This document shows positions 2,196 to 63,965 of a DNA stretch of 64,000 nt, piece by piece. Under the pieces are notes generated by a model that was not told the origin of the DNA, ran no database searches, and worked only from the letters and a program-made list of their open reading frames with translations. The position numbers and the translations under genes are program-made. Every line of letters starts with the position of its first letter. The stretch's first letter is position 1. This DNA comes from Naegleria gruberi (Eukaryota): NCBI GenBank assembly GCA_000004985.1, contig GG738858.1, one strand, 5' to 3'.

Positions 2196-2483
2196 CCATA
2201 ACATATTTACAAATTTATCAAACTATAATTCTTATAATCTTTCCAATAACACTTTGTTCATTTCCTTGGATTACAGAATAATGTCAAGTAAGAAAGGTAT
2301 CAAGGCAATAATTGTCCAAGTTGATGTTTAAATCAAACAATAAAAGGTCAAAAATATTGAATATAGAATTTGTTAACCAACATTACAAAATTCCATATTA
2401 GAGTAAATACGAGTTCCAAGTTAATTACTAAAATTGTAAACAAGTTCATAAAATTTAAAAAAAAATTGAAAATCAAAAAAAAA

Positions 2484-3527: not shown

Positions 3528-3533
3528 TGGAAT

Positions 3534-5921
3534 CTATTCCAGGTTTTGTTTCTTTATGTCTTTGAGATAGTTTCCAAAAGATTTTAACAGGAATAAATCC
3601 ATAGCTTTTCTTTGTTGGTTCGTACACTTTCCACTCACGTGAGAGAGTAGCACATAATCATCTTCCATTCCAATACCATTCTCTACTGTTTGTTTCAATA
3701 GTTTTTGTTCCATTTCATTGAACATATCAATGTAATATTCTGGTTTATCTTTCTGATAGGGAATCTTACGAATGGAGAACCAACAATGAGCAGCATCATC
3801 AATTTTATCAAGAGCAAGAAGGGTCAGGGCCATATTGAACGCAATACTGAACTGGGTTTCAATCAACAACTTTCTATCGAAATGCTCCTCCGGTAATAGT
3901 ACAAACGCCTGTCTGAGTAAATGTAGGGCATCATCTAGTTGGTGTTTACAAATCAGTATCATTGCTCTATTGTTTAAAAGCACAGATTTGAAAAAGGTAT
4001 TTGATATTTCCTCAGATTTTAAAGCTCCCTCCAAAATTTGTTCACATTCCATGAGAGGCCTTTCCAGTGCCATCATGGCATCACACTTATAGAGTAGGAG
4101 CATCACGTCTTGGTTTGGACTCGAGATTCCACCTAGTTTCTTAATGGCATAGTCACAGATTCTAAGTGCCTTCCCATAGCTATGAGTTTGAAGGAGACAG
4201 TAAATGTACATTTTCAATAATTGAAGTGGTGAAATGCTTTCATCTGGATGCTCTGCGTTTTGATTGACTTTTCCCCACAATCTCTTATCTTCAGTGTGGA
4301 TTAAATTCTTGATGAGATGCTCAAAGCAGTAAAGAGCGTCATAGTAGCTTTCCTCCTTCACTAGCGAATTACCAATGTGGCTTAAAATCAAGTATGGACT
4401 CAGTATTGATGTATTTCTCTCTTCTTCATCAATATTGGATGTTTCATTGACAAGAATTTGATGAATTTCTTGTAAAATCTTACGCTTAGGATGGTGCTCT
4501 CCCAAATAGTCTCTTATTTTACACATATTGTACATGGATTCAACCTTTTTTAGTGGATTACTTTCAATACTGCTTGCTTTTTGTAACCAATTGAGACAAT
4601 CACTTAGTGATGACTCTTTCAAGAATAAGAGAGCTACCATGTGACTGCTTTGGGACTGGTAAAAAGAGTATTCCTTTTGGTTGGAGCTGAGCTCAATAAC
4701 CTTCAAAAAGGTATCCTTGGATGTTTTGATATCACCCTTTTCCATTGAAATTATCGCCAATAAATAGAGTGCTGGTACATATTTTTTACAGAGCTTGCAT
4801 TGGGCTACTGCAGCGTCCAGTTTTTCCACTTCCAATAGTGCAATAGATAGGTGCATTTGGCTATTATTAATTTCATTATCAATATCAGCGGAATCTCTTT
4901 CAGAAATTGTTTCAGAAGACATGCCACTCAATTTTTTCAAAATATCATAAACAATTCCACCAGTTCCTTTCTCGTTCCATAAATTGTCAGCTATTAATGA
5001 AAACTTTCTCTTGGATATCAATACCGAATTGTATAAATTCAATACTCTGGCCAATGTAATGTGAAAATGTAGCATGGCTGTATTAAGCGAGTCCTTCATT
5101 GCACTATCGAAAAATTTCAAAATCCTGTTTGAATAATCTACACTAAAGACTGATTTGAATTTAGATTTTTTTCGTTTCTTTGTTGGTGGAGACAATTTGG
5201 CTTCATCCTCAAATAGATAACCAGAAAAATTAAAATCAATTGCTTCCTGTAGTGATTCGAAACATTTCTGTAGTGATTGGTCAGTAAAAAGCTGCAGAAC
5301 TGAACTCATAACAAAGTTTAAACACTCATACAGAGAATCCAGCACTTCCTTTGTGTTTCTTGAACTGAATAAATTATCATTAACCACAGCAATTAAATAA
5401 ACCTTCAATCCAAATAGCAATCCTATCTGAATGTTTTGATTTTCTATTTTCCTAGTCATCATTGAATTAATATTCGTTCTAACATGTGCAACAACTCCCT
5501 CCAGTGATATTGTTGATGATGAAGATTGATCAGCATTCGATGCATTCAAATAATAGCCACACGTCTTTTTATCCATCATCATGGCCAAATAGTAAAACTC
5601 ATTGACAAGTTCTTCGTCCGTTATATAGGAACCCACTCCTCCTCCTTGTGTAGGAAATTTACTCTCCAACTCGGAAACCTTGTTCATAATTTTTGTATAT
5701 TGTCCATTCGTAAATAATTGGCTTGCTTGTTGATTGCTAAATTGAATCCATTCTCGAATAAGTTTCTTCCTTTCCATATTATTATTGTTCTTTCCATTAT
5801 TATTTAATGATGATGATGATAATGAATCACTACCACCTTCCAAAGATGATGATGATCTTCCATTCTCCATAGATGCACTACTTTTTCCCTGAAGGAGAGA
5901 AGCAAAGAGTGACCTATTCAT
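3534..5921 (-). CDS. large helical-repeat (TPR-like) protein of unknown function
   Basis: Single 795-aa ORF with the ATG at 5921..5919; the ORF-track start at 5930 is a TTG. It is predicted alpha-helical and repeat-rich, with an N-terminal S/N-rich stretch. I could not make a firm family assignment; it may be TTC39/Iml2-like. Confidence 0.55.
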   Translation of the reverse strand: MNRSLFASLLQGKSSASMENGRSSSSLEGGSDSLSSSSLNNNGKNNNNMERKKLIREWIQFSNQQASQLFTNGQYTKIMNKVSELESKFPTQGGGVGSYITDEELVNEFYYLAMMMDKKTCGYYLNASNADQSSSSTISLEGVVAHVRTNINSMMTRKIENQNIQIGLLFGLKVYLIAVVNDNLFSSRNTKEVLDSLYECLNFVMSSVLQLFTDQSLQKCFESLQEAIDFNFSGYLFEDEAKLSPPTKKRKKSKFKSVFSVDYSNRILKFFDSAMKDSLNTAMLHFHITLARVLNLYNSVLISKRKFSLIADNLWNEKGTGGIVYDILKKLSGMSSETISERDSADIDNEINNSQMHLSIALLEVEKLDAAVAQCKLCKKYVPALYLLAIISMEKGDIKTSKDTFLKVIELSSNQKEYSFYQSQSSHMVALLFLKESSLSDCLNWLQKASSIESNPLKKVESMYNMCKIRDYLGEHHPKRKILQEIHQILVNETSNIDEEERNTSILSPYLILSHIGNSLVKEESYYDALYCFEHLIKNLIHTEDKRLWGKVNQNAEHPDESISPLQLLKMYIYCLLQTHSYGKALRICDYAIKKLGGISSPNQDVMLLLYKCDAMMALERPLMECEQILEGALKSEEISNTFFKSVLLNNRAMILICKHQLDDALHLLRQAFVLLPEEHFDRKLLIETQFSIAFNMALTLLALDKIDDAAHCWFSIRKIPYQKDKPEYYIDMFNEMEQKLLKQTVENGIGMEDDYVLLSHVSGKCTNQQRKAMDLFLLKSFGNYLKDIKKQNLE

Positions 5922-6003
5922 TTTTTTCAACTTGGAAATTCGATAAATTACTCGAAGTTAAAACATTTGAAACAATAAGTTAAATAAGATTTATTGATAT
6001 GAT

Positions 6004-8839
6004 TTACCATTCTTCCCAATTATCACTCCAATCCTTTGGTTTTTGTTGTTGAGAAGTGTTGTTGGTATTTGAGGTTGCTTGTTTAGGTTGTTGTTGTTGT
6101 CTGATTGGTTGTAGTTGTTGTTGTGGTTGTGGTTGTGGTTGTTTTGGTGGTTGCTGAGAGAATGATGGTTGCTTCTTTTGAGGTTCATTCATTGAGGCAA
6201 AGAAATCATCACCAAAATTGTTTTTCTGAGAGGAAGTGATATTGGATTGGTTGGTATTGGCTGTTGGTCTTTTTTGAGTTGGATTTGGTGAGCTAGTAGA
6301 AGTGGTTGTTGTTGAGGATGTTGGGGCATGAGATAACTTGAGAGAGGAAGATGCAATAGTTGTCTTTGCTTTTGGTATCTCAAATTGGTTGTCCATATCC
6401 CAAGAGCTCCAATCACCATCTAGTAAATCGTCACCACCAAGCATAGCTCCACTTGAAGAGTTTCCATTATTTCCAGGCATATCATCCATATCGAAAAAGT
6501 CATCAAATTCATTGTTGCTAGAGCTCTTAACTGGCTGCTTCTTTTGTGCTGTAGTACTTGCTGTGTTATTGGTATTTACACTTTGGACTGGCTTATTTTG
6601 AGTTGCTTGCTTTGGTTGTAAAGTGTTGAATTCTTGAGAGTTTTGTTTTGGAGTTGTGTTAAGAGAAACTGGTTTGTAAATAGTTGAAGAAGCAGTATTT
6701 GAGGTGTTGACAGTGGAAGAACCATATCCAGAATTTGTATTGGTGCTACTAAGAGATGGAGAGCTTGTTGGTCTAGTTTGTTGTTGATTTGTTGTGGTAT
6801 TTGATCCAGAATGTTGTTCATTCTCACCCAATACTTTAGTCTTGATGGATTTCATAGCCCAGGACAAGTAATCTCCTTGTTCTCCAGAACCACCTGTTGT
6901 TGCACTAGTACTAGATTGACCATTTGCTATGGCACTATCTTGACTTCTTTCGTTGGCAACAATTTCAGTAAAGTTTGGATTTTCTGACAAATCAGAAATA
7001 ACCTTCAAAAATTCATTCATAACTTGGAAAGCTAAATCTCTCACTTGTTTTTCAGCATCTACAGTAAGGGAAACAACAAAAGGTAAACCTTTCACTGCAA
7101 CTTCACTCACTGAATAGAAAGATTTTGTGCTCAAAAGAGCTTTCAGAGCAGCAACTCTAGAATGAACGAATGGATCTTTGAGACTTCTAACAAAAGCAGC
7201 TAAAAGTACTCTTTTACGAGTTTTTTCTGAAAAGTTGGCAGCTAATTTACCAAAAGCAATAACAGTGTTAGTTCTAATTGCATTTTCCTTATCACCTTGG
7301 AGGGCCCACATAAATCTCACAACGCTATTGTCAACAGTATCCTCTTTGAGCTTTGGAACGAGGGAGATCATTGCCTTGACTGTCATTTCTCTCAAAACTG
7401 GAGAAGTATCTTTGAATCCTTTAGAAACATGTTCATAGACAATTTCAGATTGTTCTTTTGTCAAATATATGGCAATATGATCAATACTCCTCAATAAATT
7501 AACTCTAACTGTTCTATCAGCAATTTCGAAAAGGTCAATAATTTTTGGAATGAAGATTGTCTTGTAATCATCCTCATTCAATAGACTACCAAGTTTCATT
7601 ATAGGAACAATAGCTTTTTGGCCATTGTTAGTGAATTTGATGAGTTGAATCAAGCTTGGAAGTACCTTATTCTTCAGATTATTTTGTGGAATTTGAGTTA
7701 ACATGTCAGGTAATCTATTCAAAAAATCGTCAGTTGCTGCTGCATCTTTGATTGTAATATTTTCCAAAAAGAGTTGAATTTCAATAAGAGAGTTCTTAAA
7801 ATATGGATTTTCCAACAATCTTGCAGCATCCATTCTCATTTTTACATTCTTATCAATGAGTTGATCATAACCGACTCTGAGAGTTTTTGGAATTTTAGAA
7901 ACTCTCTTCAAATCGTCTGAATTATTCAAATTTCCTTCAAAAATTTCATAAATTAAACAAGCAAGCCCCCAAGAATCAAGTTTTGATGGACTTTCCTCAA
8001 TGATATCCCATCTGTCACAAATAGATCAGTATATTGATTAGTATATCACTCATAAACATACCTCTGTGTTGTAAGCTCCAAAGATTTATACTTATTCATG
8101 ATAAAGGAACCAAAAGTTCTTACAGGAACACCATAAGAAGCTTCAGTTGGATTGACTACTCCTCCACTATTTTGGAATGATGTTAAAAATCCAAGTTCTC
8201 CCAGTTTCCAATCTCCACCATTATCCACAAAAACAGAATCCATATTTACATTACAATGATACATATTTTTCCCATGTAAGAAAGTCAATACTTTCTATTT
8301 GAAAATTTAAATATTATCAACACGATAATACATACAGCTATTTGATACAATCCGTAGGCAATTATTTCTGGTGCTCCGAGTTGAATTCTAATATTTTGCA
8401 ATTCAGTAGAGAGTGGTGTTACATATTCAGTCACAATACAAATACTATTTGGCAATTCAACTCCACTATTTGATGATAATGATGATATTCATCAATGATG
8501 AGGGCTTTTAAACTTACTCTAAAAAGTTAACAACACCTGGATGTTTAATGGCACGCAATCTTTTTAAACTTGCTTTGGCCAGTTCAATCTTATCTAAATA
8601 TCAAATAATTAACAACAATTATGATGATTAATTGATGGTTATTAAATCCATCTTCGGAACATACCTGGTGATGTTGTTGTATCAAAATCAAACTTGAAAA
8701 TTGTTACCAATTCCTGATCAGATTTTCTTCTGGCTTTATGAATCTTCCATAGAGTAGATGTTTGAACAAAATTCTCTTCGATATCATATGGAAATTCCTT
8801 CTTTCCTAGTAACGCACCAACCTGTTGAGCATTTCCCAT
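6004..8839 (-). CDS. SCY1-like pseudokinase (SCYL1/Cex1 family), 5 exons
   Basis: join(8839..8665,8593..8518,8465..8336,8294..8062,8011..6004) on the minus strand; 2622 nt, 873 aa. The donors are GTATGT or GTAAGT, and the exon phases agree with the ORF-track frames. The N-terminus is MGNAQQVGALLGKKEFPYDIEE...IFKFDFD. The kinase-like domain lacks HRD/DFG (FLHGKNMYHCNVNMDSVFVDNGGDWKLGELGF). HEAT-like repeats follow (LREMTVKAMISLVPKL...), then a Q/N/S/T-rich tail with QPQPQPQQQ. Confidence 0.8.
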
Positions 8840-8935
8840 TTTTTTTAACTTGGACGTCAACAGTTGCAATCAACACGTGTATTTCACCAACAACAGTTGA
8901 ATTGGAAGCTGAAGTGAATAGTTATTTATTGCAAT

Positions 8936-11900
8936 TTACCTTTTAGGATTTGATGAGGATCTTGTTTTTGAGGTTGAAGTGTTGGATTTTTTCTTTTTCT
9001 TAGTTGTTGTGGTTGTTGTTGTGGCATTTGGATTGGTTAGAGGGGCAGTGTTAAGGATTTTTTGAGATGCTGCAGCTAATTGACTAGCTTTCTTTGTTAT
9101 TGACACAGCACTGATTGGTTGATAGTAAGAAGGTAATTGATTATTATGAGGCATATGATCAGAGTGATGAACGCTAGGGGATGATGTAGTGTGAAGGGTA
9201 GTTGAAGGTGGTGGAGGATGAGCTACAATGTACTTTGGATAGATATGTTCGTCATTGTTGAGAGGATGAGATTGATAATTATTGTAATCGTAATAGGTAT
9301 TTTGTTGCTGGTGAGTATTTGGAGAAATTACATGTCTTCCTTCATTCATAATATTGGAATTCATAATAGGAGTATTGGAATACAAATTGCTATTGCTTGT
9401 TATCATCGATGGCATTGATAGAATGTTTGAGGTTTGTTTGATTGTTGTATCGGTTGTTTGAATGGCTGGATCTGTATCCTGTTCTTGGTCTTCTCCACCT
9501 TCTTTCTTTCTCTTGTGTTTTCTTTTCAGTTTTAACAAGTAATTTTGAAGCTCGTTTTGTCTAAGAGATTGTTTGAAGAACCTCTCCTTCAAAATCTTGT
9601 ACTTCTTGACCATATGCTCGTATTGTTCCAAATATTTTCTATTATCTGACTCATAGTGGTCTTGGAGTTGTCGTAATTGTTCGTCCAAAATCTTTTCCAC
9701 AGATGAGTTAGAGTCACGCCTGATGAGTTCCTCCTTTTCTCTAATAAGTGAGTTGATTCTATCCTCTTGGTCTGAAATTTGATCATGATATTGGGATAAT
9801 TGAGAATTAAGGGCCTCAAACTTGATTTCATAATCTCTTAGTTTGCCAGTGTATGCATCTTCAAGTTGCAAAGCTGCTGATTGCGCTTCTTTCGCCATAG
9901 ATGATCTTTCGTTTTCAACCCTCATGTGAAGTGAATCGTTATCTGCTTGAAGTTTTTTGATCTTCTTTTTGAGATGATCTATATCCTTGTTAAAGTCCAT
10001 ACTAGCTTTAGAAATTTCCTCGTCTTTCTTTGCCAAATTATCTTCTAATTGTCTAATTCTTTCATCCCTAGCTGCAACTCCAATGTCTGACTCTTCTCTG
10101 AGAGATCTTATCGTGTTGGTTGCAGATTGAAGTTGCTTATCCTTTTCAGCTAGATCTATTTGGAGTCTTTCCATGTTTCTGTTCAGCCTCTTCGTCTGTT
10201 CCATAATAACTTCATTTGAAAATTCTCTCTTTTGCACCAATTGATCTTCCAAAGACTTGATAATTGTTTCAAATTTGTATTTTTCTTCCTCTCTCAATCT
10301 TGTATCATCACTCAGCTTGTGTTCTAGTCCTTGAATAATTGCCTCCAACTCCTTCTTAATGATGATTCTATCGTTTTCACTGTCTTCTAGGCGTTTCTTA
10401 GACATTTCCAATTCTCTTGCTACTGATGAAAAATGATGGCTTCTTACACTCACAAACTCGACAGTCTTGTCGACTATTGTTCTGTAATCCCTTGAGTTCT
10501 TTATGACAACGCCGGACTCTAATAAGAGATTCTTTAGTCTATCTACTTCTTCTACAAGTTCTGTGTGATGGGATGTTATCGTTTCAGTTTTCTTGCTTTC
10601 CAAATCGATAACCTTTTGACTTTCTTGAATCACCTTTTCCATTTGGTTGATTCTCATTTCATATGACCTAGTGATTTCTTCATTCTCATGAATCTTCATA
10701 TTCAATCTCTTACTCAAATCTTCTAATTCATGTTGAAGCTCATGATAATCGAAAGAATTTTCCTCTCCATATTTTTCTTTTAACTTATCTAGAGAGTCTT
10801 CCAAAACCCTTACTTTATCATTTGATCTCAACAAGTTGTCTGAGAGTTTATCAATCTCTGTCTGCTTTGTTTTCACAATGTAATCTCTTTGTTGAAGTTG
10901 TTGTTTGAGGAGATTGAGTTGTGTTTCGGTTTCATTTTTGAGTGATCTTAGGGTCTCAACTTCTTCTTCCAATCTCTCTCTTATCCTAGCTTCTGAGGAA
11001 ATTTGTCTTTCCAATTCAAGTCTTTCAAGTTTAATTTTCTCGAACTTTTCATCAATTCCTTTCAATTCCTTAACTTGACTTTCAAGTTTGTAATTCTTTT
11101 GTTCCATTTCCTCAATCTTTGATGCATACTCTTCATGTAATTCGTGAATTTTCTCTTGTTCATGTTCATGGGATGGCCCAATATCAACAGATTGTTTCAA
11201 TGTAAAAAGTTCCTTCTCAAGTTTTTCCTTTTCAACTCTTAGTGATTGAACTAGTGTATGATGTTCCTTATTAATATGCTTTTCAGTGGAAATTGATTTG
11301 AAAATATTAAACAATGCTGTTTTAAACTCCTTGTATATACAGATGAATTGATCTGAAGCAATGTCCTTTTCATTAATTTCAGTGTTGACCATCTCATATA
11401 CATTTTCGATATTTTGATGTTTGAATAGATACAACAAGTTCTTCATGTCTGTCATGATCACAAAACTTGCTTTGGATACTCCTTTCTGTGATAACGATTT
11501 ATCCTCTTCATACTTTTGCCTTATTTCCTCCTCTCGTTGTTTTTGTTCTCTGAAAATATTTTCAAGTCTAGCTGTGTGTTTTGTTTGAAGTTCCTTATAC
11601 AGACTTCTCCACGTATCTAATTCTAATTTCATATTTTCTACATGATTTGTAAGTTTAGCAACTGCCTCCGACTCTGTTCCTCTTACTGGAGTGTCAGCAA
11701 ATAATATCGATGAAAATGTTGATGGCTCATCATCTTGATGCTATACAATAAATTAGTTCAGTCGTCAATTATTATTAATTCCTCCTACCTTTGATGATGA
11801 AAAAATTGGAAAGTGAGGCAGTTCTCTTTGCGACTCATCCATTCCATAATCTCTTCCCTCATTTGATGGTGATGGTGTGTCCCCTGTTGTAAGTCCACTA

Positions 11901-23420: not shown

Positions 23421-25266
23421 ATGGACAAACACACAACACGAACACAACTTTCACAAAAAGAAGAAGAAACAAATAATTATAAATTTCCGAATGACATTAT
23501 TTATGAAATTATGTCCTTCCTTGATGATTTTAAATTTATTGTCATGAATTGTGCATTAGTGTCCAAACAGTGGTTCAATGTTATTTTATCAACATGTAAT
23601 CATCTTAATTTAAATTGTAAACGTGGTGTTGAAATGGGTGGCCAGTTTTTACAGAATATTGCAATTCTTGATGTTTGTGCCACGAATGATACTTGCAAAA
23701 AATTAATCTCGATGAAATCATTAACTGAACTAATAATTAAATGTGATGATGAAGGATCAGCTAAATTCATAAGCGAATTGAAACAATTAACGAGGCTTAC
23801 TATTGATGCCAGTCATATTCGTGATGAGGGAGTTAGATATATTAGTGAATTGAAACAATTGGCCTACCTTAGTGTTCATAGCAATGATATTTCTGATGAT
23901 GGAGTTAAATATCTAAGAGAATTGAAACAATTGACCACTCTTATTATTTTTAGCAATCGTGTTGGTAGTGAAGGATGTAAATGTATTAGTGAATTGAAAC
24001 AATTGACCTCTCTTTGTATTGATGATAATCATATTAATGATGAAGGAGCAAAGTATTTAAGTGAATTAGCACAATTAACATATCTTGATATTTCAAGCAA
24101 TGGGCTTGGTAATGAAGGAACTAAATACATTAGCACATTGAATCAATTGGAAAAACTTAATATTTCCCAAAATTATATTGGTGATGAAGGACTCGAATAT
24201 TTTGGTAAATTGTCACAATTGACAAGTCTTGAACTTTCATAGCAATGATATTGCTGATGATGGAGTTAAATATCTAAGAGAATTGAAACAATTGACCACT
24301 CTTATTATTTTTAGCAATCGTGTTGGTAGTGAAGGATGTAAATGTATTAGTGAATTGAAACAATTGACCTCTCTTTGTATTGATGATAATCATATTAATG
24401 ATGAAGGAGCAAAGTATTTAAGTGAATTAGCACAATTAACATATCTTGATATTTCAAGCAATGGGCTTGGTAATGAAGGAACTAAATACATTAGCACATT
24501 GAATCAATTGGAAAAACTTAATATTTCCCAAAATTATATTGGTGATGAAGGACTCGAATATTTTGGTAAATTGTCACAATTGACAAGTCTTGAACTTTCT
24601 AACAATAAGATTGGTACTGAAGGAGCTAAATATTTAAGTGAATTGAAACAATTAACCCAACTTGATATTGAATATAATAAGATTGGTGATAAGGGGGCAA
24701 TGTATTTTGGAGAATTGAAACAATTGGTCAATCTAATAATTAATAACAATAGGATTGGTAATGATGGAGTTAAATATATTGGTGAATTAAAACAATTAAT
24801 CTATCTTGATATTTCTGAGAATCGCATTGGCAATGAAGGAATTAAATATATTGGTGAATTGAAACAATTAACCGATGTTAATATTTCTGAGAATCGCATT
24901 GGTAATGAAGGAGCTAAATATATTGGTCAATTATCACAATTGACAAGTCTTTATTTATCTAACAATAATATTGGTAATGAAGGAGCTAAATATATAAGTG
25001 AATTGAAGGAATTGATCTATCTTTATATGAATAACAATAAGATTCGTAATGAGGGAGCTAAATACATAAGTGAAATGAAACAAGTAACCCAACTTGATAT
25101 TGGCAACAATTATATTGGCGAAGAAGGAATAAAATACATAAGTGAAATGAAACAATTAATACATCTTGAAAAATACCAATATAATGAAGAAATGTACAAT
25201 GAAAATGAAGAGGAGTATAATGAAAATGAAGAAGAATACACTGACAATGAGGAGGAGGAGTACTAA
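23421..25266 (+). CDS. F-box-like/RNI-type LRR protein (paralog of 78..2195) disrupted by an internal 361-bp tandem duplication; possible pseudogene or assembly artefact
   Basis: The ATG at 23421 gives MDKHTTRTQLSQKEEETNNYKFPNDIIYEIMSFLDDFKFIVMNCALVSKQWFNVIL. The reading frame hits TAG at 24240-24242, exactly at the duplication junction, and continues in the +1 frame (ORF 24229..25266) through more LRRs. It ends with an acidic YNENEEEY tail like the paralog. Confidence 0.6.
23877..24598 (+). repeat. near-perfect direct tandem duplication, 2 x 361 bp
   Basis: Copy 1 is about 23877..24237 and copy 2 about 24238..24598. They are identical except for one substitution (atttctgat vs attgctgat). 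A unit of 361 is not a multiple of 3, so the duplication creates the in-frame stop. Confidence 0.85.
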
Positions 25267-30803: not shown

Positions 30804-33234
30804 TTATTTAGATATTTGTTCCAAATGGTTAATGATACAATCTCTGGTTAATTTACCCATCAACCTTCCTTTCCAAACTACAAAAACCTCATTAAGAGAA
30901 AGTTGTGAAAATAACATGTGAGATTGTTGGATTGGTTGACCTTCTGAAATTGTAAATTCACAACTTTCGTATTCAATTTCAATGATTTCTTCATCCATTT
31001 CTTCTAGTGGAATGTCAGAAAGTTGAGAGGCAGAAAGAGGGAGTTCACCATTTTTTGCTTGCTTTCGATTTAATTTCATTTCTAATAAAATTTCAATATT
31101 CGAAAGAGAAACTTGACCCAATAATAATAAATTATTCAAATTTTCAACCATTGGAATCTTATCTTTGGGACTGTAATTTGCCAATTGACATTCTTTTACA
31201 ACTTTTTGTAAATCTTTCAATTTCATTTTAGTTTCCAAAATTGGTAATCCCTGATCCAAATTAATCATCAAATTTGAAGCTTTCAAATCAACAGAATCAG
31301 ATACGTTCTCCAATAAAGCTTTCCAATTCTTTGCTCTAATTACAATATCATAAACACTACTTGTGAAAGCTCTGGAAACTTGCACTGAAATGAGAGCAAC
31401 CATTAGACAAGGTAAATGAACAGCAACTCCAATCATTTCTAGAAAGATAAATACTGTTGAGAAGGTATGTGTTGTGGATGATGTGAGTGAGACTATTCCA
31501 ATAACTGCATAGGCGCCAGGTTTGATGAGTTGACCTGCCACAAATCCATTTGGAAAAATGACAGCAACTATTTCACCAAAGAATCGACCAAATCCTGCTC
31601 CTATTAATATAATGGGAATGTAGAGACCTCCAGGTAGTTGAAGAGATAGAGTGAAAAGTGTCAAACAAAATTTGACAACTAGGTAAATTGACAAGCTCAC
31701 AAACACATCATTTGGAGAATTGATAATCCATCCCTGATCTGTAGATAGAGAATTAGGTGATAATAATGCTTCCAATGTTTCACTCACTGATAATGACATG
31801 TATTTCCCAATCAAATTTGGAAATGTCAAAATGCCAGTAATTATACAAATGAATAATGTCCACAATGCTTGATTATTAAACAAGGCAGTAGCTCTATACT
31901 GTTCCAACTTTTCACTTTTGAAAAATAGAAAGTTTTTTCCATAGTTTAATCTCAATCTCATAACTAAACTTGTTAAATATAAGAAACAAACTCCAACTAA
32001 ACCCATCAGAAATCCAAGGATTGCATGAGCTATGAGTTCTGGAATGGAAAATGATGGATATGGTAGTTTAAAGTGCCAAGTCATGGACACGTTGAGATTA
32101 AGCCCAATGAGAGAATCGAATAATCGAGAGACGAAAGATGCAATAATTGCAACATAGAAACTCTTCAAATATCCTCTCAAACTGTAATAGGTACAGATAG
32201 CTTCGAGTGCAAATAGGACACTACCACCTGGTGTTGCAAAATTAGCACCAACACCCAAAGCCTTTCCAAAATTAGAAATTTTACAAAAATTTAAAAATTT
32301 AAAAAATTTAAAAAATATAAAAAAAATTAAAACTTACACATCCACAAGCAATCATTTGATCCCTCAAAGCTTTCACCTTTTTAATAGGTCTAAATATAGG
32401 TAATCTCATCATATTATATGTCAATAATGCACCAACATGAGCTGACGATCCAACATCACCCAAAAACATTCCACTTCCCAAAACCATTGGCAATGCAACA
32501 ATTTTCACTAAAAATGTTCTAAATCCAAATGCTCCTTTAATATTTGCACCATTCAACATTGCCTTAACAAGTGAAATTCCAGAACCTTCCGAATATGGAC
32601 CAAACAGAACTACAAGAATTAAGGAAATGGTCACGAAAAACAAACTATAAATCACCCATAGGAATAATCTCAATCCAAAATATTCCTTCTCATCGAATTG
32701 ATTTATAATTGTCAACCTTCCTCTGTACATGTACAAAACTATCAAGTCATGACAGTAAATGATAATTCCACCCAAAATTCCACAAATTGTTAGAAAGGTC
32801 CAAACATATTTCTTATTGAGAAAGTGTTTCTTCCAATGCATGGTTTCTACATAGCTCACTGTTGCTGCATGTTTGACAGTTTGTAGCATGAATTTGACAT
32901 CCATTGGATTGTCATTGATTTCTGACGTGTTACTATATGATTTAACAGTTTCAACAGAGTTATTAGGAATGTATTTGATATGTGATGATAGACTTGGTGA
33001 GAAATCATCAAAATGTATTTCTTTTTCATGAAAGTTTCCGATAGTTTTTGGTGGAATTGAATTATTCGATTCTTTCAGAGTTTCCTCTGCGTTTGTTGTA
33101 GTTTCATTTGTTGTATTTGGTTGATCCAACGGTTGCTCATCACCAACATTGCTTGCCACAGCATCATTTGCTGCCAAATCTTGTGACATTTTTTTATGGT
33201 GGTAGGCAGTGGCATATCCTAATATGGATGACAA
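30804..33234 (-). CDS. CLC-family voltage-gated chloride channel/transporter with C-terminal CBS domains, 2 exons
   Basis: join(33234..32338,32261..30804); the intron is 32337..32262, with a GTAAGT donor and a GGAAAG acceptor. Exon 1 contains GSGMFLGDVGSSAHVGA, resembling the CLC selectivity motif GKEGP. Exon 2 contains GVGANFATPGGSVLFALE, resembling GxFxP. It has multiple TM helices and C-terminal CBS-like repeats. An alternative start is at the internal ATG at 33189. Confidence 0.8.
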
Positions 33235-48555: not shown

Positions 48556-49692
48556 ATGGGACAATCACAACCGAGCTACCCGCCACCACTTGCAACAAAA
48601 TGTTCCGAAAATGAAAGATTGGCTGTGATGCAAAAATTGGGAAATTTTGAGATGGCTCCAATTATGGAATTTAAATACTATTTTAATAGGAAATACAAGA
48701 ATAATTATCAACATTCGGATGAGAGTTTAGTTTTCAATGATGAGAATTGTTCGATATTTGAGAGGGAATTACCTGAAGAAGTGTTTATTCACATTTTGAA
48801 ATTTTTAAATCATCGAGAATTAATCAAAATGAGAAGAGTTTGTACAAACTATGAAAGTTATTGGATTCAAAATTCGAAAGTGTGGAATGTAAGATCGTTC
48901 GAAACTGAAAAGGATGAACCAAACATGTTGTTCAAACCAGTTTTGAATTCGCCCATTGAATCCATCTCTTTTTATTACAAACACTTTCTTCCAACCATTG
49001 TAAATTCATTTTACAGAGGCAACACAATTTCATATAGAGAAAGAATCAAAACTATTCTTTTAGGAAGTGAACGATGTGGAAAATCTGAATTAATGAAATT
49101 GGTTATTAACAATTATCAAGATTTTAATCCATTACTGGAATACTCTCCAACTGATGCCCATCTTTACACACCATTAGAAATTATTCCATTCAAGACCTCT
49201 TCTGAAAGAGGAGATTTGTTATTACAATTTTGGGATAGTTCAGGTAAAGAAAAGAGAATTCCCTTTCTCAAACCATTATTAAGGGAGACGAGAATTTATA
49301 CATTTTGTTTTGATTTGAGCGATGTGAAATCTTTCTTTGAAATGAAAAGTAGAATTGAAACTTTTCAAGTGGAATATTTAAATTCTAATTCATTGAATGA
49401 GGAATTAAAAGAAAGTGGAGCTTGCATGTTGGTGATTGGAATGAAGAGAGATTTGGAGAGGAAAGTGAGTAAACTTGAAATTACTAAATATTTGGAAGAA
49501 TTGAGCAAAGTTAAAGATGGAATCTCAATTAAGAGTTTAAGAATTCAATATTTCGAGTTGAGTAGCAAACAGGATTCAAAGAAAGTATTGGAATTTCCAT
49601 TTATTTATGGGTTGACCATGATTGAAGAGCATATTCCACCAGAAGAGACATTAGAAATGATGGCAGCACACTTTATGAAACCTGCAAAATAA
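48556..49692 (+). CDS. F-box domain fused to a divergent Ras-superfamily (Rab-like) GTPase domain; N-myristoylation-type N-terminus
   Basis: 378-aa ORF with N-terminus MGQSQPS. The F-box is LPEEVFIHILKFLNHRELIKMRRVCTNYESYWIQNSKVW. The GTPase motifs are G1 ILLGSERCGKSELM, G3 WDSSGKE, G4-like VIGMKRDL and G5-like ELSSKQ. Confidence 0.6.
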   Translation: MGQSQPSYPPPLATKCSENERLAVMQKLGNFEMAPIMEFKYYFNRKYKNNYQHSDESLVFNDENCSIFERELPEEVFIHILKFLNHRELIKMRRVCTNYESYWIQNSKVWNVRSFETEKDEPNMLFKPVLNSPIESISFYYKHFLPTIVNSFYRGNTISYRERIKTILLGSERCGKSELMKLVINNYQDFNPLLEYSPTDAHLYTPLEIIPFKTSSERGDLLLQFWDSSGKEKRIPFLKPLLRETRIYTFCFDLSDVKSFFEMKSRIETFQVEYLNSNSLNEELKESGACMLVIGMKRDLERKVSKLEITKYLEELSKVKDGISIKSLRIQYFELSSKQDSKKVLEFPFIYGLTMIEEHIPPEETLEMMAAHFMKPAK

Positions 49693-49746: not shown

Positions 49747-51009
49747 TTGTCAAAAAAAATGAATCCACATCAAAAACCGTCTACACTATCACCTCATAAT
49801 CAAGGAATACTTGTTGATGATATATTTTCCAATGACATTTGTTTTGAAATTTTATCATTTCTTGATTCTTGGTCAATTTTAAATTGTTCTTTAATTTCAA
49901 AACAATTTCGTCAAGTAATCAAGGAGGGAATAAAACTTTCTATTAATTTCCGACAAGAAGTTAACAGTGGAGGATTAGAAAAGCTTGGAAATAGTTCATT
50001 TATCGATAATATAATTTCATTGAAATTTGGAATAATTCCAAATCAATATAAGAAATTCTTTGATTGTTTGAGATTGATGCATCAATTGACCGATCTTTCA
50101 TTATCTAATTTTATATTTGCTACATATGCTGGTAAAAACAGTGAAATTACTGTTGAGCTAGCCAAATGCATCTGTCAATTGAAAAATTTAAAAAAACTTG
50201 ACGTTAGTTATAATTATCATCTTGAGAATGAAGTTGTTGAATTGATAAGTGAATTGAGAGAATTGAGAGAACTTAACATTAGATACTGTGATATTGGAGT
50301 AGAAGAGGTAAAATATCTCACTAAATTGGATAAATTGCATTCTCTGGATATTGGTATTAATCAAATATATGCAGACGGAGCTAAATTATTAAGTACAATG
50401 AAAAGTTTAACAAAGCTTGATGTGGCTGAGTGCGAAATTGGTGATGAGGGATGCCAGTCAATTACAGAGCTTTATCAATTGACTGATCTCAATATAAATG
50501 GTGATGGTATTGGTGTTGGGGGAGCTAACTGTATTGGTCAGATGAGGAATTTAAAAAGTCTCGATATTAGCAATAATTTCTTTGGAAATTATGGAGCAAA
50601 ATCAATAAGTGAGCTATCTCAATTAGAAATTCTTAATGTTTCATATAGTGACATTGATGAAGTGGGAGTTTATCAGTTACGCAAATTGAAAAATTTAACA
50701 TCTCTTTCCATTCATCATAATGAGATAACTGATGAAGGAACTAAATATATAGTAGAATTGGACCAATTAACTCATCTAGATATTAGCAACAATCAAATTG
50801 AAACAGAAGGAGCAAAATCTATTAGTGAAATGAGTCAATTAACCTCATTGAATATTAGTTCTAATATTATAGGTGACGAGGGAGCTCAATATATCAGTCA
50901 TTTAAAAAAACTAACATCACTAAATGTTAGCAAATGTAGAGTGAGTGAAGAAGGAGTTGAATCTATCAGAAAACAATTGAAACACTTGAAAACGCTTGAG
51001 GTAGAATAA
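49747..51009 (+). CDS. F-box-like/RNI-type LRR protein, divergent third paralog
   Basis: 420-aa ORF with an N-terminal F-box-like region, FSNDICFEILSFLDSWSILNCSLISKQFRQVI, followed by about 12 RNI-type LRRs (for example ISNNQIETEGAKSISEMSQLTSLN). It has no acidic tail. Confidence 0.7.
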   Translation: MSKKMNPHQKPSTLSPHNQGILVDDIFSNDICFEILSFLDSWSILNCSLISKQFRQVIKEGIKLSINFRQEVNSGGLEKLGNSSFIDNIISLKFGIIPNQYKKFFDCLRLMHQLTDLSLSNFIFATYAGKNSEITVELAKCICQLKNLKKLDVSYNYHLENEVVELISELRELRELNIRYCDIGVEEVKYLTKLDKLHSLDIGINQIYADGAKLLSTMKSLTKLDVAECEIGDEGCQSITELYQLTDLNINGDGIGVGGANCIGQMRNLKSLDISNNFFGNYGAKSISELSQLEILNVSYSDIDEVGVYQLRKLKNLTSLSIHHNEITDEGTKYIVELDQLTHLDISNNQIETEGAKSISEMSQLTSLNISSNIIGDEGAQYISHLKKLTSLNVSKCRVSEEGVESIRKQLKHLKTLEVE

Positions 51010-52794: not shown

Positions 52795-53195
52795 GGGTTT
52801 CTGTATTAAATTCATGTTTGAATTGTACCAGTAAATAAAATTATTAATTAAAGTTAATTTAAAATTTAAATTCAAAGATATTTTATAAAATAAATTATCT
52901 TGTTATTAAATCAATGTACGGTTTTCTTAGTCTTGATGAAAGGTTCCACGAAAGAAAACTGGCTCAGAAATCAATTAAGTCCATCAAGGAATAGAACATG
53001 TTCAATAGGTAAGAGCTAATCAATATTACAAAGGCTGTTATCACAAGAAATTAGTTCAATCATCACAGAATCACCACTCTCGCTAGATAGATTCACCATT
53101 CTTTTTGCCAAGACTGTGGATATTGTTATTAAGGCCATTGAATTTAAAAAAAATTACAATTTTTTGACAAACAATAATTTATTAAGATATATGGG

Positions 53196-56100
53196 TTAAT
53201 TAACTAGTCCTATCGGAACATAGCAAACCAAACCATAAATACCTCCATCAGGAGTAGTAGTAGCCCACCAACCATATGTTGGATAAGATCCCATAAAGTA
53301 AGCATAGGTAATACTATCACCAGATGCTGGATAATAACTACTGTACCAATCCTTATAGACAATGGTACTTCCATCGGACCAAGTTGTGAAGGAGCCTTGG
53401 GAAATTTCATGTCCCTTAGTACCTAAGAAGAAGGCATTGGTTTCATTCTTTGGAAGGAGATTGTTGGCTAAGAATGTCTTTTCTGTGGCACTTTGAATTT
53501 GGACCAATGAAGCGTTTGGATGGAAATACTTGCACAAACTACTCATTGATTCAACGGCATAATAGTTTTGAAGTTTGGTAAAGTAATAACATCTTCCCAA
53601 TGATGTACTACAGCTCATCTTTCTATACCATGGATAATCAACCATGTTGACCTTTGGAGGTAGAGTTGAAGGAGCAGTAATGATACCTGATGGACCTGTA
53701 ATTGTTCCTTGAGAATATTGAGAACCACCAGCAAGGCCAAATTTGATAATACCTTCTGGAATGTCTCCTGCAATCTTGAGTGTGTAAATCTTGTAGGAAC
53801 CTGGTGCAATAGTGTATGAGCTAGGCAATGACAAGTAGGTGAAACCAGTGAGTCCAGTAATTTGATCAGCACCAATGTAAACAGGGAAGCTTGGTGAATA
53901 ATCATGGAAGGCATCTTGGTTGTATCCTGCTTGTAATTCGAGAGTGAATCTAGTAAGTGCAGGTGATCCAGTAGCAACACTAATATTGTATGTGAAAACA
54001 GTAACTGGAGAGGAAGCGTTCAAGAATGTGGCAGTAGAAGAGGTCTTACCCAAATATTTAACAGAGTAACCACTGCTAGCTAATGGAACGAGTACATTGG
54101 TCTTGGATGTGTCAACAATATTACATGAGTTATCAATAATGGTTTGGTAAATGTTACTCAAATCGTTCCAATTTACCAAGACAAGATTATTTTGATCATA
54201 GTTCATCTTTTGTACTTGAATTTGACCATAACTATCCGTTACAGCAGAGCCTATTCCGATAGCAAGCTGTCTCCAATTCCAAACTGAGCCATAGAGTGAC
54301 ATTTCAGCATTATTAGAGCCACCAATTGACCAAGAGTTAATATCAACTGATCTAACAGTGGCATCAGAACATGGATTACAACGAGATCTATCATCATACC
54401 ACGAGCAAACAGTACAATCTGCGCCTGGGAAGCGAGGGCTCTTACAATAGGATGGGGAAACACCATAGTTTCCAGGATTTGATGAATAGGTTGATCTACA
54501 GCTACCACAAGAGCATGGGTCATTTGAGAGACCATCAGTAATGTGAATCAATAACTTTTGAGAAATTGACTTTCTACCAGAGGCCAACATCATATTAACT
54601 GCAGTATTAATACCTGAAATTGAGTTGGTACCAGATTGAATTTGGGCCATATTCTTGATGGCAGTTAAAACACTAGATTGACTTGTACCAGACTTCAAAT
54701 CCAAGTGAGTTGTAATAGTTGAGGCAAATTGAATAATACCAATGTTTGTTCCAGTTGGAGAGATGTTTGATCCAAAGCCTGTTGTCAAATTGGAAGCAAA
54801 GTTCTTCATGTTAACAAAGTTATCAGCTGTAATACTTCCAGAACCGTCAATAACAAATATGATATCCAAGTTAAGACCGCATTGACACTTGGTGTATTGA
54901 ACTGAGACAACAGCTGATGCTGAGGTACCATCTTGATCTGATTGGATACTGTAAACAAACTTTTGAGTATTACAACTTCCAGTAACTGGATAAACTCTGA
55001 TAATTCTATTGTTGGCAGGATCGGCTGGGTTGAGGATGGCTGGAGTGCCTGATGTACAATATGAGGAATCACCTGATGGACAAGAAATTCCAGTGAAAGT
55101 GAATGTACCACCAAGAGAATCATAGTCATTGCTCAACAAACTTGATACAGAGATATCAATATAGGTATTGAATTGTGTTGATACAAAGTCATTGACAGCA
55201 ACAGGAGGAGAAGCAAGAGCTGAAATTCCAACTTGAACATTCTTAGTAATTGGATTTCTTGCATCAGAATCAGAAACAGCTAAAACAAAGTTACAACTTC
55301 CAAGGAATGTTGCTACTCTCAAAAACTTGACTTGATTGCTGGCAATTGTCAAGGATTGAAGAACGGTGCTATTACAAGTTCCAACATCTGCAATACTCTT
55401 CAAAACTAGAGTGTCTGCAGTGTCGGCATCCTTTGAAGATGAGAGAGAAATATAATCAAATGAAATATAATTATTACTAGCTCTAGAAATTGAATAGACA
55501 TAAGTGTAAGCATTCAAGGTTGGAGCTTGATTAGGTTGAGCAATAATAATCTTACAAATGGCAGTTTGTCCAGCAGTGTTTGTCAAAGAATAGGAAGCAT
55601 AACAATCACTATTTGATGATGAGGTACTTGCTGGAGTGTATGTCAATTTACCAGTAGAGGATGAGATGGAACCAACACCATTAAGAGTAGCAGTGTTAGT
55701 GATAGCCATTGTGACTGGTTCAGAACCAACCTTTGCTGTTAAACTTGTCTTTAAAGCATCTTCAAATTGAGTAGCAGCAGAATTCTTTGTAGTGGAAATT
55801 GTGTAATCAAGACATCCGAAAGAATTACCAGTGATTGTAACAGTGTAAGTGTAGGTTGAAGTTAATTGACCATCAGTCAAGGTGAAAGAGAATTGCAAAG
55901 TTCCCAAATAAGTAGTAGCATAAGTAAGCTTTACAGATCCATCAGAGTTCAACAAGACAGAGGCACCAGTGTTTTGAGTAATCATACTAACACTTGAAAC
56001 AGTAACTGTATCACCATCAGCATCACTTGCACCTGTCAATAGATCAGTGAAAGTATAAGTTGGATTGGAATAACTTCTTTCAATGGTGGTAGTCTTTGCA

Positions 56101-59100
56101 CTTCCAGTTGGAGGTGTATTTCTAATGACTACAGACATGGTAGCATAAGTTGCAACTTGAGCACCATCATAACAACTAAACTTAATGGAGTCTGTAACAT
56201 ATCGTGTTCCATTAGAAAGAGTGGTTGTGTAAGAAATTGAGGAGCTTGGTGTGTAAACAAGAGATCCAGTAGTGTAATCCGAAACAGTTGTTGTACCATA
56301 TGAACCTTGACCAACTCCAAACAAAGACAATGAATCGCTATCAGCATCATAACAGTATTGAGAAACAACATTTGTCAAAGACAAAGTGTTCTTCCAACCA
56401 ATAGTTTTAGAGAATGAAGTAGCTTGAGGAGCAGTATTGGTAAAAACAAGGTTAACAGTGGCAATATTAGAGGTGGCAATTTGATCAGTAATGGTGTATT
56501 GGAATGAATCAGTACCTGGACCATTAATGAAGGTATTCATATAGAAAACAGTTACCAAATCACTTTGTAAAACAAGGGCGGTATTACCTGTTGGCAATTG
56601 AGCACTACCAAAGTTAACATTATTCAAATTCAAAGAATTAGAACCCAAACTCATGATAACACCATACATGTTAACAACATTGAAGTTAAGTTGACCATAG
56701 GTAAGGACATGTCCATAGAATGTACCTTGAATACCTGCAGCGCCAACAATCCAGAAAACGTTCAAGTAACTAGCACCATTCTTGAAACTCCAACTAAAGT
56801 TAGCATTCAAATTTGTGGTGGCAACAAAGATAAAAAGACCACTTCCACTCAATTCAATTTTACCATTTCCATTGAGACCTTGAGAGAAACAATATACACC
56901 TGGAGTAAATGACAAAACACCTGAAGATGGGAAGTTTTGATCAAGAGAGGCAACACAAGACTTTTGTGAAAGATATTGGTAGAGATTTGAGGCAGATGTA
57001 ACAACAGATGAGTAGGCAGCGTTGTTGACACTCAAAGTACCAGTTGGTTTAAGAGCTTGAGCAGTGAAACCAGCAGTGGCAACGCTTCCAGGAACAACCA
57101 AATTGGCAAAGTTATTACAAATGGTTGAACCCTTAGAAATAACAATGTAATCTCCGATACCATTGTATGAACTGACTAAGCTTGATGGATATAACTTGTT
57201 AATATAAATATAATCACCATCAACATCATAATCGTTCAAAACAGGTTTCAAATACAAGGTATTATTGGTCCAGTGTTGAGTGAATGTATTATCAACAGCA
57301 ACAGGAGGAGTATTAGTAATGGTAATGGTAACAGTATTGGTAACACTTGAGAAACCATCAGTTACAACATAGGTGAATGAAGTAGTGAACCCAGCAGTTA
57401 GAGGAACTGGTGTGTACTTGACAAAAGTGGAATTAACAGAAGCAACAGCACCAGTATTTGGTTGAGTGAATGAAACAATGGTCAATGAATCACCATCAGC
57501 ATCAGTAACTCCAGACATCAAATCAATACTGAGGCCACTTTGAACCTTAGCCCAGTGACGACTGAATGTTAATGGAGTTGCTGTAGGAGCGCTATTGGAA
57601 ATAGTAACAAAGATTCCCTTTGATGCAGAAACTCCCATTCCATCAGTTACAGTATAGTTGAAGAATTGTGATGCAGAGTTTCCATTAGAATTGGTGAATG
57701 TGAATGATTTCTTGTCACCACTCAAAGCAACAGTACCTGCACTTGGATTAGTGAATGATGAAATAACAAGATAGTCTCCATCCTCAGTATCAGCATCAGT
57801 TGGCTTGAGAGAATCAGCTCTACCAATAACTGGAATAGAAATTGAGGAAGTGTGACCAGATACAACAATATCTTTAGCAACTGGAAGATTGTTATAGATA
57901 ACAATGCTGAATGTTGCACTTGAAGTGGACCACCCATCAGTGAATGAAACAGTAACGGAATCAGTACCAGTGTAAGCACTATTGACCTTATAGTTAATGG
58001 TGTTTCCTGAACCAAGAGAAGCAACACCAACCAGTGTCTTTGTGACAGCAGTTAAGGTAACAGCATCACCATCAGCATCCTTAAGATAGGAAGAAAGATC
58101 AATAACAGTATTACTCAAAACAGTTCTCCAGTGATATTTGAAAGCTGCAGTAGTATTGGCTGTTGGAACACTATTCAAAATTGTAATGGAAACAGTACCA
58201 GTGACTGTATCTCTTCCATCAGTGATAATATAACTGATTGGGTTGATACTACCAACAAAACCACTGGAAGGAGTGAATTTTACATTTCCAGAGCAAGTGA
58301 CACTACCTTGAGCTGCAGTAACAGATGAAGAGCATGATTGTAATGATAATGAATCTCCATTAGCATCTGAAGAAGCAGAAACAACTTCAAATGTTAAACC
58401 ATTCTTAGCTGAAGACCAAGAACCGACAAATGATTGTGAATTTGTTGTTGGAGCAGTATTGGTAACAGTAACAGTAACAGTTGATGTTGAAGTGGCAATC
58501 TCATCAGTGATTGTATAGTATACAGTATCTGTAGATGGAGCAGTTCTTGGATAGTAAGTAATGTTGGTTGAGGTAAATGTTGGTGACAAAGGAGCTAATG
58601 AACCATAAACATTAGTAACTCTCAATGGATCAGACTCAGCATCAGTATCGTTAGCAACAACATTCAAAGTGTAAGAAGCAACGTTCCAGTGAGTAGTGAG
58701 CTTATCTGGAACAGCTACTGGGGCAGTATTGTAAACAATCAAGTTGACAGTTGTGGTAACTTGACCGTTTGAAGCACCATCAGTAACAATGTACTTGAAT
58801 GAAAGTGAACCCACAAAGTTTCCAGAACCAAGGATTTTGACAGACTTGCTATCCAAAACAGTTACGGAACCAACACTTGGTTGAGAAGCAATTGAAACCA
58901 AACTCAATGAGTCGCCATCAGTATCATAATCAGCTGGAGCATAATTTAAGATATCAATTTCAATACCTGCCTTGAAAGTTCTCCATGGAACTGAAATAGT
59001 CTTGGTTTGAGAAGTTGGAGCGTTGTTTACAACAGTTACAGAGATTGAACTAGTTGAGCTCTTCATAGAGTCAGAAACTCTGTAGTTAGCAGTGTAAACA

Positions 59101-63965: not shown

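Follow-up and report, generated by a model that had tools for sequence, protein, structure and literature searches.

We analysed a 64,000-nucleotide (nt) stretch of DNA from Naegleria gruberi (GenBank assembly GCA_000004985.1, contig GG738858.1), hereafter called the window, and concentrated on the giant gene at its right-hand end. A single open reading frame (ORF) occupies 53199-63998 on the minus strand, with 3600 sense codons uninterrupted by a stop, and it is still open at the window edge. The stop codon TAA was read off the sequence at 53196-53198 (minus), and an AATAAA hexamer lies 13 nt beyond it in AT-rich surroundings (53178-53183, minus). An open frame of 3600 codons in sequence of 33-38% GC is not a chance product, and the giant continuous ORF proposed by an earlier reading of this DNA (the original prediction) was confirmed. 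An exhaustive HMMER search with the C-terminal 561 residues recovered the metagenome protein P0142 at 99% identity, and NAEGRDRAFT_79080 belongs to its 90% cluster. The gene is N. gruberi NAEGRDRAFT_79080 (EFC46599.1, XP_002679343.1, UniProt D2V9J6), which databases name "hypothetical protein" or "tandem-95 repeat protein". A literature search on NAEGRDRAFT_79080 and its paralogs found no paper mentioning them.

We then compared the ORF with the public model of NAEGRDRAFT_79080 (P0292, from JGI). This model has 2704 residues, made up of eight blocks collinear with the ORF and 136 upstream residues, and 2567 of its 2568 in-window residues are identical to ours. It leaves out seven pieces of the ORF, 1032 residues in total, located on the minus strand at 61725-62435, 60270-60524, 59991-60188, 59157-59432, 57741-58847, 57195-57545 and 55929-56129. 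As cut, six of the seven are bounded by GT..AG, and the junction of the remaining one (57741-58847) seems offset by about 2 nt. All seven are stop-free and multiples of three in length, with a GC content (0.35-0.39) like that of the whole ORF (0.378). The best-scoring repeats of the protein (aa 510-795) fall within them, and the metagenome homologue P0001 is collinear with the ORF at 47-55% identity over most of these "introns". In addition, the Willaertia magna orthologue ABK040_005755 is one unbroken ORF of 10,680 nt encoding 3559 residues. Together, these observations indicate that the seven pieces are coding, and that the public gene model is very probably wrong, its seven introns being spurious products of gene prediction. 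The gene is therefore probably intronless, and its true product is likely to comprise 136 + 3600 = 3736 residues. The apparent 1032-residue gap created by the spurious introns would mislead proteomic and comparative work.

The domain content of the protein was assessed with hidden Markov models (HMMs). Big_9/cadherin-like repeats, Ice_binding (DUF3494), von Willebrand factor A (VWA) and Lectin_C all scored above the Pfam gathering thresholds, and the predicted order of repeats, ice-binding-protein (IBP)-like domain, five repeats, VWA and C-type-lectin-like domain (CTLD) was correct. The architecture was refined in its details: the IBP-like domain, previously placed between repeats, lies inside one; an extra 160-residue β-sandwich separates VWA from CTLD; and the VWA domain carries a 55-residue insert. 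Residue numbers below refer to the window ORF unless the full protein is named.

The larger part of the protein is a stalk of repeats. Its first part (57315..63998, minus; aa 1-2228; Big_9 6e-189) consists of the last 12 residues of repeat 1 and 23 complete repeats. The repeat unit is about 95 residues long and of the Big_9/cadherin-like "tandem-95" type, with DxDGD-type acidic motifs in most copies. In the whole-protein Pfam scan, Big_9 (PF17963) reached 614 bits over 21 stretches against a cutoff of 23.6, Cadherin_4 reached 421 bits and Cadherin_5 345 bits. The NCBIfam tandem-95 repeat model NF012211 scored 408.8 bits over 16 stretches (cutoff 90), and the protein thus belongs to the Big_9/tandem-95 repeat family. 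A classical cadherin was ruled out, as PF00028 gave no match. With repeat boundaries defined by an HMM that we built from clean repeats, the full protein contains 30 units, of which repeat 25 is split by an insertion. At the DNA level, the repeats follow a period of about 285-291 nt, their copies match one another at 60-85% identity over short stretches only, and no array of ~285-nt period was reported by Tandem Repeats Finder. This strong divergence makes a unique assembly possible and removes the collapse of near-identical repeats as an issue; the mis-assembly of shorter genes into one ORF, named in the original prediction as a possible flaw, was rejected for the same reason.

The split repeat provides the most unusual feature of the stalk. 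Its N-terminal half (57153..57314, minus; aa 2229-2282) extends through a DVDGD motif, at which collinearity with P0001 breaks, and its C-terminal half (56439..56576, minus; aa 2475-2520) is 80% identical to the matching piece of the paralog P0144. Between the halves, in the loop of the repeat, lies the DUF3494 or ice-binding-like domain (56577..57152, minus; aa 2283-2474, 192 residues). P0001, which lacks this domain, aligns to aa 898-2282 and then to aa 2475-2857, leaving a clean insertion of 192 residues directly after the DVDGD motif, and the host repeat continues from aa 2475. The paralog P0144 has the identical insertion junction, and its copy of the domain is 70% identical, as conserved as the flanks. 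These alignments indicate that the IBP-like domain is nested inside one repeat and not placed between repeats. The stalk then continues with five more repeats (54897..56438, minus; aa 2521-3034), the third of which is degenerate (aa ~2723-2822); extra cysteines occur in the last two.

The assignment of the inserted domain to DUF3494 was supported by several searches. When the segment was scanned alone, Ice_binding (PF11999) scored 32.7 bits against a cutoff of 28.7 and covered HMM positions 48-195 of 208. The margin is modest, and the family does not appear in the whole-protein Pfam table at E <= 0.01; the copy in P0144 scored 39.9 bits. By the gathering score, the domain is a member of the DUF3494 family. 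A sequence search of the PDB (178,000 sequences) with this segment returned DUF3494 ice-binding proteins only (7bwx at E 3e-6, and 4nu2), and a two-sequence profile matched 8x0z at E 2e-7 and added 6bg8 and 9lhr. The segment alone gave no match in a word-indexed protein search, and a search for its donor among 185,579 prokaryotic genomes revealed no close one. In metagenomes, the closest relatives, at 28-36% identity, are bacterial DUF3494 proteins, small and high in GC, one of them with a signal-peptide-like N-terminus. The label "ice-binding" here denotes the DUF3494 fold family, in which an α-helix accompanies a right-handed β-helix, and does not in itself speak for ice binding. Hundreds of bacteria that live in non-freezing habitats have DUF3494 proteins, many of them without a known function, and these proteins may bind surfaces other than ice (PMC11645318).

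The C-terminal part of the protein carries three further modules. The VWA domain (54114..54878, minus; aa 3041-3295; VWA 6.9e-26, VWA_2 7.4e-14) scored 85-92 bits on PF00092 against a cutoff of 23.8. Its metal-ion-dependent adhesion site (MIDAS) is complete (D3051-G-S-G-S, T3124, D3155), so that both HMM score and motif identify it as a VWA domain. Of four homologues read, three have conserved the full set of MIDAS residues, and in P0002 the threonine position is unclear. With its complete MIDAS, the domain looks functional. The insert of 55 residues (aa 3160-3214; window 54357-54521) contains eight cysteines, and the Willaertia homologues P0002 and P0149 have a longer version of it.

The next module, an unnamed domain that we call X (53634..54113, minus; aa 3296-3455, 160 residues), had no Pfam match and no sequence match in the PDB, also when a family profile was used. 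AlphaFold2 (AF2), given a six-sequence family alignment, predicted a confident β-sandwich (pLDDT, predicted local distance difference test, 81.9; pTM, predicted template modelling score, 0.79). The nearest structural neighbours of this model are chitinase accessory domains and family 2 carbohydrate-binding (CBM2) or chitin-binding modules. Domain X is accordingly modelled as a generic Ig/CBM2-like β-sandwich with no specific function assigned.

The protein ends in the CTLD (53199..53633, minus; aa 3456-3600). With the last 150 residues scanned alone, Lectin_C (PF00059) reached a marginal 23.9 bits, above the cutoff of 22.6, and the tail of the N. lovaniensis orthologue reached 40.6 bits. In the PDB, a five-sequence profile of the tail reached E 5e-10 with single CTLDs and E values from 1e-22 to 1e-30 with receptors that contain several CTLDs; snaclecs and DEC-205 were among the PDB matches. 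Four cysteines are consistent with the C0-C0' and C1-C4 pairs. The features of a true Ca2+-dependent carbohydrate-recognition domain (EPN/QPD, WND and the C2-C3 disulfide) are not present, and the sequence points to a C-type-lectin-like fold and not to a proven lectin.

The topology of the protein was examined on the full 3736 residues. In a Kyte-Doolittle analysis with 19-residue windows, the mean exceeded 1.6 only for windows starting at residues 28-42 (span 28-60). The hydrophobic stretch covers approximately residues 31-56, after a 30-residue tail, and is flanked by a lysine before and acidic residues after it. A motif in the tail (...GF..N[IV]SL[LM]K.GT..QT) and the helix itself are common to the N. 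gruberi paralogs, W. magna and distant metagenome members. Given the long hydrophobic stretch from residue 31, the preceding lysine and the following acidic residues, we infer that this segment is a type II signal anchor and not a signal peptide that is cleaved off. The original prediction had proposed recovering the N-terminus and its signal peptide; the N-terminus was obtained as the 136 residues of the public model, and the signal peptide gave way to this putative anchor. The remaining 3680 residues would be extracellular, in keeping with 38 N-glycosylation sequons, the cysteine-rich VWA insert and the presence of VWA and CTLD domains. A cytosolic partner may dock at the conserved tail.

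We next asked how the gene compares with its neighbours in composition. Its GC content at third codon positions (GC3) is 0.257, within the range of 0.20-0.36 seen in neighbours, and its synonymous codon fractions correlate with those of the pooled neighbours at r = 0.887. With 0.378, its overall GC exceeds the window mean of ~0.33. Codon position 2 (0.47) accounts for all of this excess, owing to a composition rich in Ser, Thr, Val, Gly and Ala. Codon bias is sharper than in the neighbours (Lys AAG 0.76 vs 0.38, Phe TTC 0.60 vs 0.33, Val GTG 0.00 vs 0.17); T-ending codons are favoured and G-ending codons are almost absent. High expression may lie behind this bias, or else selection that keeps the translation of so long an mRNA accurate. 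On the evidence of the sequence, contamination or recent transfer is excluded, and an ancient bacterial origin of the repeat module is possible.

Homologues of the protein form a lineage-restricted family, as had been suggested, with relatives in N. gruberi, N. lovaniensis, Willaertia magna and metagenome sequences. The original prediction had described the context as amoebozoan-like; the gene is from Naegleria gruberi (Heterolobosea, Discoba), and its homologues in N. lovaniensis and W. magna do not fit that description. A VWA-X-CTLD tail is found in N. gruberi NAEGRDRAFT_72752 (2816 aa, 59% identity) and NAEGRDRAFT_79811 (2366 aa, 51% identity) and in N. lovaniensis C9374_012226 (3429 aa, 42% identity). 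In W. magna ABK040_005755 (3559 aa, 40% identity) no CTLD was detected by sequence search, and the tail is CTLD-like only by eye (alignment A3); a second W. magna gene, ABK040_014291, ends directly after VWA. CTLD was detected by sequence in three Naegleria members of the family. Common family features are the anchor and tail motif where the start is present, 17-29 Big_9 repeats, the Cys-rich VWA and β-sandwich X. Five distant metagenome members (P0194, P0214, P0216, P0239 and P0258), whose contigs are presumably from protists, retain anchor, repeats and Cys-rich VWA, and have X and CTLD replaced by a different C-terminal domain of ~190 residues with no Pfam match. A word-indexed search with the C-terminal 1330 residues returned mostly bacterial proteins, the best of them at 25-28% identity, together with the W. 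magna homologue at 31% and a metagenome homologue at 55%.

The distribution of the DUF3494 insert within the family is narrow. It occurs only in NAEGRDRAFT_79080 and NAEGRDRAFT_72752, and NAEGRDRAFT_79811, P0001, N. lovaniensis and W. magna are without it. In a neighbour-joining tree of the five repeats that follow the insert, NAEGRDRAFT_79080 and NAEGRDRAFT_72752 are sisters. Since the insert is confined to these two sister paralogs, the simplest reading is a single DUF3494 insertion in the N. gruberi lineage, before the last duplication.

Several additional observations were made on the metagenome relatives. In some of the distant members, a unit near residue 340 resembles the repeats but is longer and divergent; in P0214 it matches Big_9 weakly. 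The contig L002, which carries P0001, has an ORF of the long interspersed nuclear element (LINE) type at 1722-5729 (Exo_endo_phos, RVT_1, RNase_H) that ends 35 nt before the truncated giant-gene homologue (5764-11100); a retroelement may have inserted into this homologue. A 5-kb environmental contig in ENA (P0142) encodes the C-terminal 741 residues at 99.6% identity, and another contig (L003, ENA ERZ929261) contains a P4-type ATPase exon 100% identical to the window. Such near-identical fragments imply that N. gruberi or a near-identical strain was present in those samples.

The surroundings of the gene are eukaryotic, in agreement with the original prediction. Neighbours encode F-box/LRR_6, DUF4116, NHL-repeat, dual-specificity phosphatase and METTL16-like methyltransferase domains. 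A P4-type phospholipid flippase (P4-ATPase) and a CLC chloride channel (15500-19900; 30804-33234) are each split over several ORFs, which is direct evidence of spliceosomal introns in neighbours, unlike the uninterrupted giant ORF. Introns and eukaryotic domains in the neighbours ruled out a giant virus or bacterial origin of the window. A taxon search based on the neighbours matched metagenome sequences at 100%, 79% and 74% identity, and named sequences at no more than 50%. Several F-box and LRR_6 genes lie within the 64 kb (78-2195, 23385-25266, 49747-51009, 48556-49692), one gene of the set joining an F-box with a small Ras/Arf-like GTPase domain, which points to an expanded F-box family being concentrated here. 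A 605-residue ORF at 13673-15490 weakly resembles ricin-B-type lectins, its 24.8 bits falling just short of the 25.6-bit cutoff, and may encode another secreted carbohydrate-binding protein.

Taken together, we consider NAEGRDRAFT_79080 to encode a native giant type II membrane glycoprotein that would act as a cell-surface adhesin or recognition receptor, and we give this reading a probability of about 0.6. According to this model, the conserved cytosolic tail of 30 residues and one signal-anchor helix would hold the protein in the plasma membrane. The 30 tandem Ig/cadherin-like repeats with their acidic DxDGD motifs would form a stalk, probably stiffened by Ca2+, with an estimated length of ~130 nm at ~4.5 nm per repeat. 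Towards its tip, in the outer fifth, the stalk would present the DUF3494 loop-out of repeat 25, the VWA domain with its MIDAS, the Ig/CBM-like sandwich and the terminal CTLD. Multivalent contact of these modules with the substratum, bacterial prey or other cells could then lead to tethering of the amoeba or to uptake, an adhesion function and a set of ligands that we infer from the architecture.

A number of findings weigh against this reading. The N-terminal 136 residues were taken from the public model and lie beyond the window DNA. The hydrophobic segment could be a cleaved signal peptide, which would make the protein secreted rather than anchored, and the 30-residue cytosolic tail contains no NPxY or other recognisable cytoskeleton-linking motif. 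The CTLD has no EPN/QPD and WND sugar/Ca2+ motifs, these positions reading "YPA" and "ATT" (alignment A3). The AF2 model of the repeat with the IBP-like domain, run on a single sequence, has a pLDDT of 41 and is untrustworthy, showing one helix and then short strands.

These points bear on what else the protein could be. If the hydrophobic segment were cleaved or the ectodomain released, the product could be a secreted or shed glycoprotein of the matrix or cyst wall, whose modules cross-link wall polysaccharides or matrix proteins. Naegleria encysts, and a lectin-like domain together with a sandwich near chitinase accessory, CBM2 and chitin-binding modules would suit such a role, as would the short N-terminal tail lacking a cytoskeletal linker motif and a codon bias compatible with an abundant structural product. 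We nevertheless regard a wall component as rather unlikely. A hydrophobic segment of ~25 residues that starts at residue 31, behind a conserved tail, is what one expects of a signal anchor, and 30 repeats in a stalk would suit a projecting receptor better than a protein that cross-links the wall. The probability is considerably lower still that the protein is a true ice adhesin or freeze-tolerance protein, with a DUF3494 domain that attaches to ice and a stalk that keeps the amoeba on the ice or shapes ice at the cell surface. The domain does pass the Pfam Ice_binding threshold, its sole sequence relatives in the PDB are ice-binding proteins with experimental characterisation, the two paralogs preserve it as well as its flanks (70% identity), and bacteria offer precedents in MpIBP (PMC5550230) and in the Shewanella protein that combines DUF3494 with a β-sandwich (6bg8). 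However, the domain shares only ~30% identity with known ice-binding proteins, neither the third N. gruberi paralog nor the homologues in N. lovaniensis and W. magna possess it, and an AF2 model of such low confidence offers no ice-binding face to evaluate. N. gruberi is moreover a mesophilic laboratory strain, and the family is widespread in non-freezing habitats, where it may bind other surfaces (PMC11645318).

We also considered whether the ORF is a real gene at all, or instead the result of bacterial contamination, of chimeric or mis-assembled repeats, or of a decaying pseudogene. The repeat type is overwhelmingly bacterial in databases, the GC of the ORF is above the window mean, and the public model differs from the ORF by 1032 residues. 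Each of these doubts is answered: the GC excess is restricted to codon position 2, while GC3 and synonymous codons match the neighbours; intron-containing eukaryotic genes lie on the same contig; homologues with matching anchor and C-terminal modules occur in three independently assembled heterolobosean genomes; an environmental contig carries the C-terminal 741 residues almost unchanged; the repeats have diverged at the DNA level; and 3600 stop-free codons cannot persist in a pseudogene. We regard this explanation as effectively refuted.

The giant type II adhesin reading would have consequences beyond this gene. To our knowledge, little is understood of the molecules by which Naegleria trophozoites attach to surfaces, prey and host tissue, and this holds for relatives of the pathogen N. 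fowleri as well. A survey of the Naegleria pangenome counts VWA and C-type-lectin genes and describes no receptor (PMC9928731). The family described here supplies concrete candidates for Naegleria receptors, with modules that can be expressed and tested. As a speculative extension, which we think of as a possibility and no likelier than that, heteroloboseans may carry an undescribed family of type II-anchored giant adhesins, built from bacterial-type Ig repeats and VWA, that do the job of integrins or Sib proteins, with DUF3494 grafted into the loop of a repeat in the N. gruberi lineage. Should the DUF3494 domain bind ice, the protein would be the first giant "ice adhesin" of a eukaryote; should its target be another crystalline or polysaccharide surface, DUF3494 would gain a defined non-ice function. 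The protein also illustrates modular evolution across the domains of life, with bacterial-type repeats, VWA, a nested DUF3494 and a CTLD in one eukaryotic protein whose architecture converges on that of bacterial megadalton adhesins. The sequence was already public; the new elements are its reading as a protein of 3.7 thousand residues, the conserved type II anchoring, the nested DUF3494 domain and the extra β-sandwich.

We finally compared the protein with known systems. The functional analogy with bacterial repeat adhesins bearing distal ligand-binding modules, drawn in the original prediction, holds. Bacterial giant adhesins of the MpIBP and LapA/FrhA class (PMC5550230) share the logic of an anchor, a long extender of Ig repeats and distal binding modules, and some members include VWA and an "ice-binding" module, as here. 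Bacterial tandem-95 proteins have the same repeat family (Big_9/NF012211), with scores here far above threshold. In contrast to these adhesins, the Naegleria gene is eukaryotic and chromosomal, with native codon usage; its product has a predicted N-terminal transmembrane helix where they have an outer-membrane retention module, and it ends in a CTLD, a fold best known from animals. A kinship with RTX adhesins, to which the original prediction had likened the protein, was not upheld: the whole-protein Pfam scan at E <= 0.01 gave no HemolysinCabind (PF00353) match, RTX nonapeptide repeats and a type I secretion signal are lacking, and the N-terminal transmembrane helix is of eukaryotic type, with no type I secretion system. 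In MpIBP the ice-binding module is an RTX-like β-solenoid, whereas here it is of DUF3494 type and nested in a repeat. A suggested link to colossin was likewise rejected, no CnaB-like repeat family being among the Pfam matches, although no direct comparison with colossin sequences was made. Among DUF3494 proteins (Shewanella frigidimarina 6bg8; fungal and bacterial 7bwx and 4nu2), to which identity is ~30% with the family threshold passed, 6bg8 is the bacterial precedent for DUF3494 combined with a tandem β-sandwich. What differs is the setting, in the Naegleria protein the loop of an Ig-like repeat in a giant eukaryotic membrane protein of a mesophilic host.

The best experimental precedent for adhesion to substrate and particles is provided by the integrin-β-like Sib proteins (SibA-E), which likewise sit on the surface of a free-living amoeba, span the membrane with a single helix and have a VWA domain in their ectodomain. 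Repeats of a kind otherwise typical of bacteria also occur in Sib ectodomains. The Naegleria protein is far longer (~3736 residues), uses another repeat family and has DUF3494, β-sandwich and CTLD modules in addition. It is not a member of the Sib family, as it has no C-terminal transmembrane helix: the type I Sib proteins have their cytosolic tail, with talin-binding NPxY motifs, at the C-terminus, whereas the Naegleria protein has its helix at the N-terminus in a putative type II orientation, with no NPxY. Because Discoba and Amoebozoa are different supergroups, the resemblance would be convergent, and Dictyostelium SibA, a transmembrane adhesion receptor with a VWA domain (PMC12686525, PMC3279395), stands as a parallel to the arrangement proposed for NAEGRDRAFT_79080.

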